A program made the position numbers. Shown here piece after piece: positions 21,001 to 24,970 of a DNA stretch of 24,970 nt (position 1 is the stretch's first letter; every line of letters starts with the position of its first letter). Source of the DNA: Sulfurimonadaceae bacterium (GTDB taxonomy: Bacteria > Campylobacterota > Campylobacteria > Campylobacterales > Sulfurimonadaceae); the NCBI GenBank assembly GCA_041562555.1, contig JBFEXS010000021.1, forward strand, positions 1 through 24,970. Reading direction: 5' to 3'.

Positions 21001-24000
21001 GCTGCTGTCACTGACACTGACATGTAAAAAGACACGACGTGACGGGAAACTTGTCGGCAGCTTATGACCTGTTTGTGACGTCACCTGCATCGTGATGTCC
21101 ATCGTGCTATCCTGTACGGACTGATCGATTATCTCTACCCGTCCTGAACTTCGTAACATCTCATCTGTCTTGGCCAGGGTATCTGCAAAATTATTCGAGT
21201 TGACTCCAAGTTCTAACTTGTTATTATTCAAAATATCCAGGAGCGTCTTATTCCCCCCTACAAAGATATGTTGAGCAAACCCATCACGCTTTGTCGTCAG
21301 GTTGTTCGGGCGGGATGCCATGATGACCCCATTCGTACGCTTCATATGACAATCTTGACAACTCTGGGTATCCTTATAAGAGCTATGTTCCCATTCACTA
21401 TAGGGCATCTGTTCAGGGAACTCACTCTCCGGTGTCGTACTCAAAAGGTTCCCGCTGTCATCTACATAAGGTGTTTTAAGGTTATGACAGCTCGCACACA
21501 TCTTTGAATCTTTTATATGTGCACTGTACTGGATAGTGTAATCTACATTATTGATCATCGGTTGTACTCTGAGATTGTCATAAGGGCCATAGATCGTACG
21601 GCTCTCATCAACCTCATACTTCCCGGACATCCCATCTAAGGTTCCCAGTTTTCCATTGTCTTTGACCTGATGACAAAGAGTACAGCTGACCCCGTTCATC
21701 GCCTCATCATGGTGTGAACTCTGAGGGTCCAGGAACCCACCCGCATCGAACAGCTCTATCGCTTCACCGTTAAAATGGGCTTCTGTATTGGCCATAGGCG
21801 CATGACACTTGGTACATTTATCATTGATGACGCTTTCCAACTGGGGATTACGGTTGATCTCAGAGCGCACTTTCGCACGCCATAAAGGGTCTTTCGTTGC
21901 ATTTGCCATCATAGTCGATGACCAGGCCTTTTCAATCGAGACATCATTCCCTGATTCATCAGTGATACCGTTATGACAGGTAGCACAGTTGCCAGACCCG
22001 GAAAAATGATACGAGGTAAACGACGTGTTTTCCGCCATTAGACTTGTTATACCTATACTTAAAAGGATTATCAATCTCTTACAAACATGATGCATACACA
22101 GCTCCCAACTATAAAAATTTGTAATAGCTTAACGGAGTAACGTTAAAGAATTGTTGCATGCGATACAACTTTTAATATTATTTTTTGTTATTCTGATCTT
22201 TTCTTGTGTCTATAATGCGATATATTTGATGTATAATTATCTACATTAAAACGGAGATCTATTATGCACATTGGATTTATCATAGAGCATTGGGACAATC
22301 TTGAACCGGTCAAAAGTTCAACCTTGGCAATTATCAAAGAGTGTTTGGCACGAAACCATAAAGTATCCATCCTCTATACTAACAATCTGACAGTTCGAAA
22401 CAATGTCGTACACGGCAGTTGCCTGACGATCAAAAAAATGGATAAGATTCCAGAAAACATCACTACGTTCTATAAGAAAATAGAGTTTGACAAAAAGATG
22501 CTTGCCCTGCATGCCTTCGACTGTATTATGATCCGAAAAGACCCTCCGATCAGCCCCTTGGCCTTCAATTTCCTTGATGCCATCAAAGACGAAGTGGTTA
22601 TTATCAACGATATCGACGGTATCCGTAAAGCAAACAATAAACTCTATACGACCACCTTCCACGATCCTAACAACCTTTTCCTGCCTGTTACCCATGTATC
22701 CGGAAGTAAAACCTATATCAACCGTATCATCGACGAGTCTAATCAGGAGAAGATGATCCTCAAACCTTTAGATGGATCCGGGGGTCGTGGTGTCATCGTT
22801 TTGGAAAAAAACGCACGCTCCAACATCAACTCGCTTCTTGACTTCTATATCGATGATTCCGGGGAGAACTATGTCATCCTTCAGGAGTATATCGAAGGAG
22901 CGGAACATGGTGATGTCCGCGTAATCATGCTCAATGGCAAAGCGATCGGAGCCTATCATCGAAAACCTGCTGTAGGTGAAGTCCGTGCTAATATCCAGGC
23001 CGGTGGAAGTGCCCACAAATATACCCTTACCGAAAGTCAAAAACGCGTATGTAAAAAGATCGGCTCAAAGCTGGTCGCTGACGGACTCTTCTTTGTAGGC
23101 CTGGACATGATCGGTGATAAAATCCTCGAGGTCAACGTGCTCAATCCCGGTGGGATCACCAACATCAATCGTCTTAACAAGGTCAAACTTCATAAGAATG
23201 TCGTGGACTTTCTCGAAGAAAAAGTCGAAGAAAAAGTCGAAAAGCGCATTGAATTGGAATATCTGCTAAAACGCCTAAGCGAGCTTCGTGAATAATAAGC
23301 TTTTATGTAAAGGCTTATAACACCGTCAAAATCCATCGTATTACTTCTGAGCTAGATAGTTCTTCCACCATCTATAAAAGAGATGTGCCTAAAACATATT
23401 CAATGAGCTCATCGACTTCGTAAGAGGATACTCAACTATCCTCTGGAGATACAGCCGTCGTGGGTACTCCTAAAGATCAATATAATAATAAGAACACTAC
23501 AGAGTATTAGATGATGATGTAAGTTAAAACCATCCCTCGATATAAGGGATGGAAAGGTGTAGTGTCTATGTTTAGAAATTATATGTCAGGTAAAGTTGGA
23601 ATGTTGTCAACTCTTCATTTGTCGTATCACCAAACATATCATAGATAAGTGCAAGAGAAGTGTCTAAGGCACCAAATGACTTGCTAGCGGTAAACGTGAT
23701 CTCATCGACCTCAGTCTCTCCTCCGGTAGCAGGCTTGATATCTGCACTCCAGTATCCAAGGAACAGATCCACATCGGCAACAGTACTCTCAGCAGACACA
23801 GTCCAAGTATCAGCCCCTGTTACACTCGCCGTTTGAAACCACCACCAGAACTCTGTATAGAGTGATGACGCAGTACCTGCAGCCTGTCCCGTTGTAGCAA
23901 AGTTATATACACCGCCGTATGAACCTTCATCATCAACTGAAGAATACGCTGCTTTTAGCGTTACCGTATCTTCAATAGCATAACCAACCATCAAGGCATA

Positions 24001-24970
24001 GGCAGAGTCATCCGGACCTGTTCCTTCCATATCAATACTTGTGTACTGCGCACCTGCTAGCAGACCGTCCATATCAATATCCGCCTGCAGCCAGTAAGCA
24101 TTAGCAGTATTTGGAAGTTCATAGTACCATGCCTGTGCTGTCAGTGGTTTAACAGAGTTGTTAGTCACACCAATAACAGCAGCACCGTCGCTACCGATAG
24201 TCTTGAATGCCCCGCCTTTAGACATGATACTTGCATCAACCGTTGCAGGATCTTCGACACCTACACCATTTGATTTACCTACCCATGCACCGACCAAAGT
24301 CGTATCCGAGATATCTTCATTGATCAGTAGACCGGCTTCAAAAGTATTGTAATCCAAACTCCATGTCTCTGTAAAAACCAGCGGCGTTTCTAAGGTCTGA
24401 CGACCGACTTTTGCCGTCGTATTCCCCAGCTTGCCTTCCAGCCAGGCTTCAGAAAGCCATTCAGTTGTTTCCAAAGCTCCGCTTTGACTTTCATGTGCAT
24501 TTGACCAAGGCCCTTCCGCAATGCTGTCCTGCATACCCAGGGTAGAGATCACTTGAAACTTCGCACCCCCTTTGACATTTTCCATCAGATCTGCCGTTAC
24601 ACCAAGACTAAATCCAAAGTCAGCATAAGATGCTGCCTTGTCAAACATTTCAGGACTTCCTGTCGTTGAATCACCTTGTGTACCGTAAAAAAGTTTTGCG
24701 TCCCCGCTGACTTCAACATTTTCTGCTGCAAACAGATTTGCTCCAAGTAATAATCCTGCTATCAAACTCATTTTAGTAAACTTCATTTTTTCTCCTGAGA
24801 AATATATATAAGTTAAACACAACAAAAATTTATTCTCCCGGGTTTTTATCCCTCCGTGTAACCTTATATATAAAAGGTCGATGACTCTCGGACCAGCACA
24901 GATGATTCTGTCGGAACCCTAGTCATCTATTGAATGTAAAGAAATGTAAATCTCACATCTAATGTCATGC

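Follow-up and report, generated by a model that had tools for sequence, protein, structure and literature searches.

A Guanidine-I Riboswitch in Front of a Predicted OprD/Occ-Like Porin Gene in Sulfurimonadaceae

Guanidine Regulons and Outer-Membrane Uptake Systems

Guanidine riboswitches have revealed guanidine as a real metabolite. In the Guanidine-I class, the expression platform is usually an intrinsic terminator that overlaps the 3′ part of the aptamer. The regulon described so far ends at the inner membrane, i.e., it comprises ABC and APC importers, Gdx and MATE exporters, and the carboxylase and guanidinase pathways. According to a 2025 review (PMC12186494), guanidine-assimilation regulons of this class are known in Raoultella, Klebsiella, and Erwinia, as well as in the GdmH operon of Synechocystis. 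The locus described here shares with them the aptamer class and, in its relatives, the ABC importer, the guanidine carboxylase, the carboxyguanidine deiminase, and the allophanate hydrolase. On the other hand, the members of the described regulons are inner-membrane importers, exporters, and enzymes, whereas here an outer-membrane channel possesses its own riboswitch. Neither a full-text literature search nor the same review gave any mention of a porin in a guanidine regulon, the gene-association lists of Nelson et al. (2017) and Sinn et al. (2021) lying outside that scope. Within the literature searched, a riboswitch-linked porin is a new gene class in the known guanidine regulon, as an earlier note on this DNA had proposed; that it is also the first dedicated outer-membrane entry route for guanidine, as the same note stated, cannot be claimed firmly.

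An outer-membrane protein behind a riboswitch is known in the case of BtuB, an energised 22-strand TonB-dependent receptor that follows a cobalamin riboswitch and is switched off by the ligand. The likeness with our locus is that an RNA switch gates the outer-membrane uptake step of its own ligand; here, by contrast, the channel would be passive, 18-stranded, and presumably switched on. The FmdC porin of Methylophilus, for urea and short-chain amides, can be likened to it by gene setting and proposed role. PMC10781810 presents FmdC as a porin for small nitrogen compounds whose gene clusters with those of a binding-protein-dependent importer and a catabolic enzyme and is induced together with them; it differs from our case by its substrate and its protein-based regulation.

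The Riboswitch–Porin Unit

The window, by which we mean the whole stretch of DNA that was analyzed, covers 24,970 nt (positions 1 to 24,970 of contig JBFEXS010000021.1 in the Sulfurimonadaceae assembly GCA_041562555.1). On its reverse strand, a full-length Guanidine-I (ykkC subtype 1) riboswitch aptamer lies at 24833..24933, where the Rfam covariance-model search gives an RF00442 match of 89.0 bits (E = 4.8e-15, model positions 1–107 of 107) for a gathering cut-off of 63 bits. This is the sole Rfam match in the window, competing matches of one clan having been reduced to the highest-scoring one, and the single RF00442 match in the whole assembly. The gap between the aptamer and the ATG of a porin gene on the same strand is exactly 46 nt (24832–24787). 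The aptamer ahead of the porin is genuine, and the earlier description of this pair, as well as of a contig that stops 37 nt upstream of it, agrees with our own measurements.

The porin gene occupies 23572..24786 on the reverse strand, stop codon included (ATG at 24786, stop at 23572–23574), and encodes 404 aa. By eye, its N-terminus, MKFTKMSLIAGLLLGANLFA/AE, resembles a Sec signal peptide. This peptide would cover residues 1–20 (24727..24786, reverse strand), cleavage being predicted after LFA from the A/I(A)-D(E)-N motif conserved at the N-termini of 73 homologs. The protein ends in YNF, i.e., with a terminal aromatic F. Pfam Porin_4 (PF13609) and OprD (PF03573), which the earlier note had placed under the cut, are both marginally over the whole-protein cut-offs (30.3 bits for 27, and 25.3 bits for 25), although these matches remain weak, and the NCBIfam "Opr family porin" models NF033923 and NF033922 stay far below theirs (34.5 for 150, and 30.3 for 100). 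The AlphaFold model displays 18 strands (pLDDT 90.3), in line with the earlier view of a signal-peptide beta-barrel porin. Foldseek aligns it with OccK8, OpdQ, and the Campylobacter jejuni MOMP at TM 0.65–0.72 (E down to 7e-18), the top-ranking structures being substrate-specific Occ/OprD channels, and a profile-to-PDB search retrieves 5dl6 at E 1.7e-4. The gene product is an outer-membrane beta-barrel channel, predicted to be 18-stranded and OprD/Occ-like. The modeled barrel has this strand number in common with the OprD/Occ channels of Pseudomonas and Acinetobacter (OccK8, 4frx; OccAB, 5dl5 and 5dl6) and with the C. jejuni MOMP (5ldt), but the identity is only 11–17%. The Occ family is known for its basic ladder, while the window's porin is very acidic, and its regulator would be a riboswitch whereas OprD/Occ channels have protein regulators.

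Downstream of the porin gene, an intrinsic terminator (CCATCCCT-TATAT-CGAGGGATGG followed by TTTT) lies at 23530..23552 on the same strand, so that the riboswitch–porin unit is monocistronic. Its next neighbor, a glutathione-synthetase-like ATP-grasp gene (22264–23295), is on the opposite strand. In the window itself, the porin is the sole gene behind the riboswitch.

The 46-nt leader, which read from the sequence is the putative expression platform (24787..24832, reverse strand), contains a U-rich tract, UUUUUGUUGUGUUU, at about 24828–24815, and a Shine-Dalgarno sequence, AGGAGA, at 24796–24791, ahead of the ATG. Folding of this leader predicts neither a stable terminator nor a helix masking the Shine-Dalgarno sequence: its best hairpin reaches just −1.9 kcal/mol, and 171 of 200 shuffled sequences are equally stable. 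For comparison, the porin leaders of genus g17 carry a clear predicted terminator with U6 behind it (−14 kcal/mol), and in genome G021 the operon riboswitch gives −11.6 kcal/mol. Translational control was also considered and rejected for the window: the whole-leader fold is like that of shuffled sequences (z −0.5), and a small UUUCU/AGAAA hairpin at the Shine-Dalgarno sequence is too weak to be its basis. With no stable terminator predicted in the leader, guanidine regulation of the window's porin is putative.

Recurrence in the Sulfurimonadaceae and Association with a Guanidine Operon

The riboswitch is present in 31 of the 150 other Sulfurimonadaceae genomes sampled, and in 18 of these 31 a homologous porin lies next to it or at the guanidine operon. 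In 12 of the 31, a riboswitch ends 44–52 nt before the start of this porin: the copy is over the cut-off in 10 (G044, G088, G021, G074, G075, G129, G102, G112, G116, and G140; spacing 45–51 nt) and sub-threshold in G114 (50.6 bits) and G110 (34.1 bits), while in G029 none was found upstream of the porin at E up to 0.05. Two further loci, in G070 and G122, are broken off by contig ends. Our recount returns the earlier note's 31 genomes, its two sub-threshold copies, and its lack of a copy in G029; on the contrary, the coordinates give 10 over-cut-off pairs instead of its 8, and to its single contig-end break, in G070, which stands, that of G122 must be added. In G122, the nearest relative cut in this way, the porin gene alone aligns with the window, and the 1.5 kb downstream of it are unrelated to the window and without riboswitch. 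Both metagenome contigs that encode close relatives (2 of 2) show the same riboswitch–porin layout. Conservation of the pairing in four genera, as initially reported, is supported, and in a fifth genus (g10) the porin is the final gene of a riboswitch-controlled guanidine operon. Beyond the family, in a class-level sample, just 2 of 144 genomes carry the riboswitch; they have three copies between them, none of which is ahead of a porin.

In the relatives, genes for an importer and the carboxylase pathway lie behind this riboswitch or a twin of it, which associates the riboswitch with guanidine transport and catabolism. Three layouts occur: a tandem riboswitch–porin–riboswitch–operon arrangement (g1, g21, and g2), a riboswitch–porin unit convergent on the operon (g17), and the porin as last gene on the same strand, 174 nt after the allophanate hydrolase gene (g10). 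The operon encodes an ABC importer, a guanidine carboxylase, a carboxyguanidine deiminase, and an allophanate hydrolase. Its products exceed the NCBIfam cut-offs for ABC_peri_uca (576 bits vs. 334) and urea carboxylase (1933 vs. 1304), as well as those for UAAP1, UAAP2, and allophanate hydrolase, and are 72–90% identical across genera. One metagenome relative carries a borderline Guanidine-II match ahead of its carboxylase gene, as in enterobacteria.

A dedicated porin is not required, as ten genomes examined have no porin near the riboswitch–operon unit (six of six in genus g7, and G149, G120, G134, and G138). The porin-side riboswitch, degenerate in G114 and G110 and missing in G029, seems to be under weaker constraint than its counterpart at the operon.

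Two Lineages of Linked Porins

Of 200 genomes, 188 hold one to five paralogs of this porin family. A tree built from 73 homologs places the riboswitch- or operon-linked porins in two lineages, clade A (g1, g21, and g2) and clade B (g17 and g10), each apart from the unlinked paralogs of the same genomes. Merging both clades by constraint costs 73 log-likelihood units (AU test, p = 0.00087). This separation argues against a single historical accident, and the tree points to repeated recruitment of the linked porins. For four of the 16 porins in clade A, the DNA examined contains no riboswitch; among them, that of G100 adjoins putP and proB and that of G094 adjoins sensor kinases, neighbors that give no hint of a guanidine context.

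A simpler possibility is that the porin is a general cation-selective diffusion paralog, raised with the regulon to increase permeability to small nitrogen compounds and having no preference for guanidinium. Indeed, general porins are wide enough to admit guanidinium, paralogs are widespread in the family, many guanidine-operon genomes have no linked porin, and sequence comparison found no residue signature common to both linked lineages. Net charge, another candidate clue to selectivity, was rejected because the unlinked paralogs are equally acidic: values are strongly negative throughout, from about −21 to −36, with clade A at about −35. However, two separate lineages were recruited, and both stay apart from the housekeeping paralogs that their genomes also carry; the predicted fold belongs to the class of the substrate-specific Occ channels; and clade A has conserved residues of its own, among them E157, W316, and further positions of the long loop 285–324. 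We consider a general porin rather unlikely, though it is the most serious of the alternatives to a guanidine-admitting channel.

Pathway Genes in the Window's Own Assembly

Using tblastn with the operon proteins of three relatives, together with family searches, we found no guanidine carboxylase, UAAP1, UAAP2, or allophanate hydrolase in this 88.9%-complete assembly, nor a TIGR03427 binding protein over the cut-off, an SMR/Gdx protein, or an arginase-family guanidinase. The only matches were biotin carboxylases of the housekeeping kind and weak homologs of amidase and ABC proteins. That the guanidine carboxylase pathway is not found in this incomplete MAG, as noticed before, agrees with these searches.

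This negative result could mean that the cassette is a remnant in this genome, i.e., that the operon was lost and the aptamer is idle, the porin being constitutive or decaying. The weak predicted expression platform would agree with such a loss, as would the porin's own terminator and the unrelated convergent gene, which take the place of the second riboswitch and the operon of relatives; furthermore, the porin-side riboswitch has decayed or been lost in the three relatives mentioned above. On the contrary, the aptamer keeps its score of 89 bits, the reading frame is undamaged, and the terminal branch of the window's porin is of ordinary length (0.18, vs. 0.12–0.24 in its three nearest relatives) and so without sign of decay. 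The same U-rich leader variant is kept in G088 and in L124; the latter retains the full operon, which shows that the variant is compatible with a working system. Moreover, the assembly is not complete, and its contig is broken off just at the riboswitch. An exact 48-nt pattern of the window's aptamer had no match in metagenome_contigs, and contigs from the two runs that contain the stretch did not reveal the DNA upstream of the riboswitch in this population. In one run, only short contig pieces of other populations overlapped, piling up on the riboswitch, as would be expected if the assembly broke there and the operon was left unbinned. Overall, we regard a remnant as improbable.

It is more improbable still, to the point of being hardly credible, that the porin serves in guanidine release or detoxification, venting periplasmic guanidine upon exposure or production. 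Most guanidine riboswitches control exporters, as stated in the review (PMC12186494), and this genome yielded no assimilation genes; yet no Gdx/SMR exporter was found in the assembly either, and in every informative relative the porin accompanies importer and catabolic genes, not exporters alone. A passive channel would be bidirectional anyway.

Proposed Function

We favor as probable the reading of the whole cassette as a monocistronic, riboswitch-induced, OprD/Occ-like porin that admits guanidine. The Guanidine-I aptamer would sense guanidine and, following the usual polarity of its class, raise porin expression; the 18-stranded channel would then let guanidine, as guanidinium, through the outer membrane to the periplasm. 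There, a co-regulated ABC importer with a TIGR03427-type binding protein would, in relatives, take up the guanidine, which guanidine carboxylase, carboxyguanidine deiminase, and allophanate hydrolase would successively convert, with ammonia as end product. From this context, we infer that guanidinium may pass preferentially through the channel; the window's genome itself would presumably still use guanidine. It is probable that the channel forms a hitherto undescribed initial step in the use of guanidine as a nitrogen source. We advance more tentatively, and with some doubt, the wider proposal that at least two housekeeping 18-strand porins have turned guanidinium-preferring in the Sulfurimonadaceae, with their own riboswitch in two of the three layouts.

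If this wider proposal is right, one and the same ligand would gate the outer-membrane passage, the periplasmic capture, and the catabolism of guanidine, and the porin would be the first passive one gated by a ligand-induced riboswitch for that riboswitch's own ligand. It would also be evidence that guanidine in the environment is so scarce that diffusion through the outer membrane limits its use. Several relatives have closed, single-contig genomes, which offer a simple experimental handle, and the linked and unlinked paralogs are natural pairs for the study of small-cation channel selectivity. To a regulon described up to the inner membrane, a porin that has its own riboswitch, was recruited in two lineages, and is kept next to the assimilation operon by five genera would add the outer-membrane step. 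Such a porin implies that marine and sediment sulfur oxidisers may scavenge guanidine at low ambient levels.

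The riboswitch and the porin gene

A full-length Guanidine-I aptamer (RF00442, model 1-107/107) was identified by cmscan at 24833-24933 on the reverse strand, scoring 89.0 bits (gathering threshold 63, E 4.8e-15). No other Rfam family exceeds its threshold in the 24,970-base window, and the assembly (2.10 Mb, 137 contigs, 88.9% complete, 4.3% contamination) contains no further RF00442 copy. On the same strand, 46 nt beyond the aptamer, begins a porin gene of 404 codons (ATG at 24786, end at 23572), preceded by AGGAGA and a four-base spacer, which confirms the arrangement reported in the earlier note. 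A longer reading from the TTG at 24825, 8 nt past the aptamer, finds no support among the 73 homologs, all of which start at the equivalent of MK(L/F)xKMSL. A typical Sec signal peptide opens the protein, and its last three residues are YNF. The porin stop codon is followed by a terminator-like, GC-rich hairpin of nine pairs and then TTTT (23552-23530, reverse strand), and the next gene, encoding a glutathione-synthetase-type ATP-grasp protein, lies on the opposite strand; thus, the riboswitch-porin unit is monocistronic. Only 37 nt of contig remain upstream of the aptamer. Elsewhere in the window, 20242-22095 (reverse strand) encodes an exported multihaem cytochrome of 617 aa with weak MtrC/MtrF-domain likeness, whose C-terminus bears two acidic Cys-flanked repeats (DGxDNDxDGLxDxxDPGC).

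Structural class and channel features of the porin

The Pfam matches of the porin, previously held to be sub-threshold, are weak and marginally over the printed cut-offs (Porin_4, 30.3 bits for 27; OprD, 25.3 for 25), and in NCBIfam the protein scores far under the cut-offs set for 'Opr family porin'. Searched as a profile, 47 homologs match two OprD-family chains of known structure (5dl6, E 1.7e-4; 4frx, E 0.029), and AlphaFold2, run with the alignment of these homologs, gives a model with 18 beta-strands (mean pLDDT 90.3, pTM 0.86). Foldseek ranks Pseudomonas and Acinetobacter Occ/OprD channels first in the PDB (TM 0.65-0.72; OccK8, E 6.9e-18), with the MOMP of Campylobacter jejuni just behind (TM 0.65). 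On these matches and this model, the porin is predicted to belong to the OprD/MOMP structural class, forming an outer-membrane channel with 18 strands.

Context aside, the computed features (net charge and fixed residues) give no support to the guanidinium selectivity proposed earlier. All family members are very acidic, with a mean net charge of about -35 and -21 in the two lineages of porins linked to the riboswitch or the guanidine operon (clades A and B, respectively) and about -27 in unlinked paralogs. Clade A has fixed residues of its own, among them E157 (Q in paralogs) and W316 (N in paralogs), with several others within the long loop 285-324; clade B has none of them.

Recurrence of the riboswitch-porin pairing

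Porin homologs are found in 188 of 200 sampled family genomes, mostly in several copies per genome; the genome of the window has a second one (C17:26406-27632, 44% identity). The riboswitch is present in 31 of 150 other family genomes, the same count as before, and in 6 of 23 genera. By crossing riboswitch with porin-homolog coordinates, we found ten sampled genomes (G044, G088, G021, G074, G075, G129, G102, G112, G116 and G140) in which 45-51 nt separate the end of an over-threshold riboswitch from the porin start. The earlier note had counted eight. A sub-threshold copy lies at that position in G114 (50.6 bits) and G110 (34.1 bits), G029 has no upstream copy at E up to 0.05, and the porin locus is cut by a contig end in G070 and G122. 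The pairing also occurs on two metagenome contigs, 44 and 47 nt before porins 79% and 66% identical to that of the window. Outside the family, a class-wide sample yielded the riboswitch in 2 of 144 genomes, in three copies, of which two precede a binding protein and one a small unrelated gene. A Guanidine-I riboswitch of G325, from another family (85 bits, L119:1501-1595, forward strand), precedes an ORF running to 2138, whose product (about 165-190 aa) is unrelated to the porin or operon proteins.

Linkage to the guanidine operon

ORFs were called on 16 extended loci, three of which were scanned with NCBIfam, and three layouts emerged. In the first (G021), a riboswitch and the porin come first, followed by a second riboswitch and the operon. 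This operon encodes an ABC substrate-binding protein (TIGR03427, 576 bits vs 334), a permease and an ATPase, the carboxyguanidine deiminase pair UAAP1 and UAAP2, a metallo-beta-lactamase-fold protein, the urea/guanidine carboxylase (TIGR02712, 1933 bits vs 1304), a TIM-barrel protein, a DMT transporter and a split allophanate hydrolase. In the second (G102, genus g17), riboswitch and porin form a unit convergent with the operon, which is itself under riboswitch control and also includes an SMR/Gdx-like gene. In the third (G010, genus g10; G047, G057 and G065 match it by their coordinates), a single riboswitch is present and the porin closes the run of same-strand genes, 174 nt past the allophanate hydrolase; this gap holds neither a riboswitch nor a clear terminator.

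Altogether, 18 of the 31 riboswitch genomes have a porin at the riboswitch or the operon: 6/6 in g1, 2/2 in g21, 2/3 in g2, 4/5 in g10, 4/9 in g17 and 0/6 in g7. Ten of the other 13 (all six of g7 plus G149, G120, G134 and G138) have no porin near the riboswitch within the DNA examined, which spans 14-18 kb for G149, G138, G115 and G083 and +/-1.5 kb for the rest. The other three are G090, whose riboswitch lies on a 1.7-kb contig and was not assessable, and G058 and G144, whose loci lie outside the DNA examined.

Some operon genes lie outside the described pathway (L061 (G021) 3175-11127; L063 (G010) 6189-7202). They encode the metallo-beta-lactamase-fold protein (260 aa), the TIM-barrel protein, which is xylose-isomerase-like (284 aa), the DMT/EamA transporter and, in G010 additionally, a fatty-acid-desaturase-family protein. 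The allophanate hydrolase of the family operons consists of two separate proteins, about 450 and about 130 aa long. In a metagenome relative, a borderline Guanidine-II (mini-ykkC) match lies between the UAAP2 and carboxylase genes (L124:13721-13763, forward strand; 32.5 bits vs 32); if it counts, this locus uses Guanidine-I twice and Guanidine-II once, resembling the enterobacterial arrangement.

Two lineages of linked porins

A maximum-likelihood tree was built from 73 of roughly 319 family matches (the 30 best, all linked porins, same-genome paralogs and a spread of others). Linked porins occupy two places in it, and the unlinked paralogs of every linked genome sit elsewhere. Clade A (16 rows, SH-aLRT 90) contains proteins of g1, g21 and g2: 9 of the 16 have an upstream riboswitch, those of G029 and G070 adjoin the operon, that of G122 is cut, and for those of G100, G094, G063 and G105 the DNA examined contains no riboswitch. 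Clade B (8 rows, SH-aLRT 89, long branches) brings the g17 riboswitch-porins together with the operon-terminal porins of g10. A tree constrained to unite A and B is 73 log-likelihood units worse (AU p 0.00087, a generous value since the group was named after the tree was seen). The strongest argument for a functional link is that two lineages of porins, in three layouts, accompany the same riboswitch and operon. The terminal branch of the window's porin (0.18) is ordinary, those of its three nearest relatives being 0.12-0.24.

Leader and switching

The g17 porin leaders contain a textbook terminator, GGGAGA...UCUCCC followed by U6 (-14 kcal/mol, z -2.9), and in G021 the riboswitch on the operon side carries one of -11.6 kcal/mol. 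Clade-A porin leaders retain these elements (GGGAG/CUCUU and ACACGG/CCGUGU, then UUUU), but their loop is large and the energy only about -4.5 kcal/mol. The corresponding segments of the window are UUUUUGUUGUGUUU; the remaining possible pairs are all G-U or A-U, and the hairpin (-1.9 kcal/mol) is not better than shuffles. This U-rich variant is not private decay, since it is also present in L124, where the whole operon is kept, and in G088. The window leader could act as a weak terminator, via Rho, via translation, or not at all. The porins of G088 (L070) and G114 (L071) are 98% identical, their upstream riboswitches score 82.7 vs 50.6 bits and their leader variants differ, which suggests recombination or fast turnover limited to the leader.

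Search for the guanidine pathway in the genome of the window

When all ORFs from three relatives' loci were searched by tblastn against the window's assembly, the matches were the porin and its paralog, weak amidase and ABC matches, and two housekeeping biotin carboxylases (at C46 and window 17838-19160). In this 88.9% complete assembly, UAAP1, UAAP2, guanidine carboxylase, allophanate hydrolase and SMR genes were not found, nor was any TIGR03427 match over its cut-off or any arginase-family match; tblastn and family searches agree with the earlier note that the carboxylase pathway is not found. The best TIGR03427-like match of the genome (C16:17491-18270, forward strand, L120) is far sub-threshold (103 bits vs 334) and contains one in-frame TGA. 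With an incomplete assembly and a contig that stops right by the riboswitch, the genome may still carry the pathway or may lack it. Summed contig depth is about 73 over the riboswitch (24800-24899) vs about 7 elsewhere (one DNA run, X1), the excess being short contig pieces that differ from the window. This pile-up hints weakly at several riboswitch-bearing populations in the sample, which may explain the contig break. Across genera, porins are about 50-55% identical and operon proteins 72-90%, a level that would hinder assembly and binning of the operon.

The porin in the guanidine regulon

A 2025 review (PMC12186494) lists ABC and APC importers, Gdx and MATE exporters and two catabolic routes; the word 'porin' does not occur in it. 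Our full-text literature search returned no porin in this regulon, though the gene-association tables of the primary papers might hold an unremarked listing, and nothing pairing Guanidine-I with TonB-dependent proteins. The nearest functional analogue is FmdC of Methylophilus (PMC10781810), a urea and short-chain amide porin whose gene clusters with those of a binding-protein importer and is co-induced with them. In conclusion, comparative evidence supports well a functional link between the riboswitch, the porin and guanidine assimilation. The regulon itself was already known; we rate the porin as a new gene class within it, with its own copy of the riboswitch.
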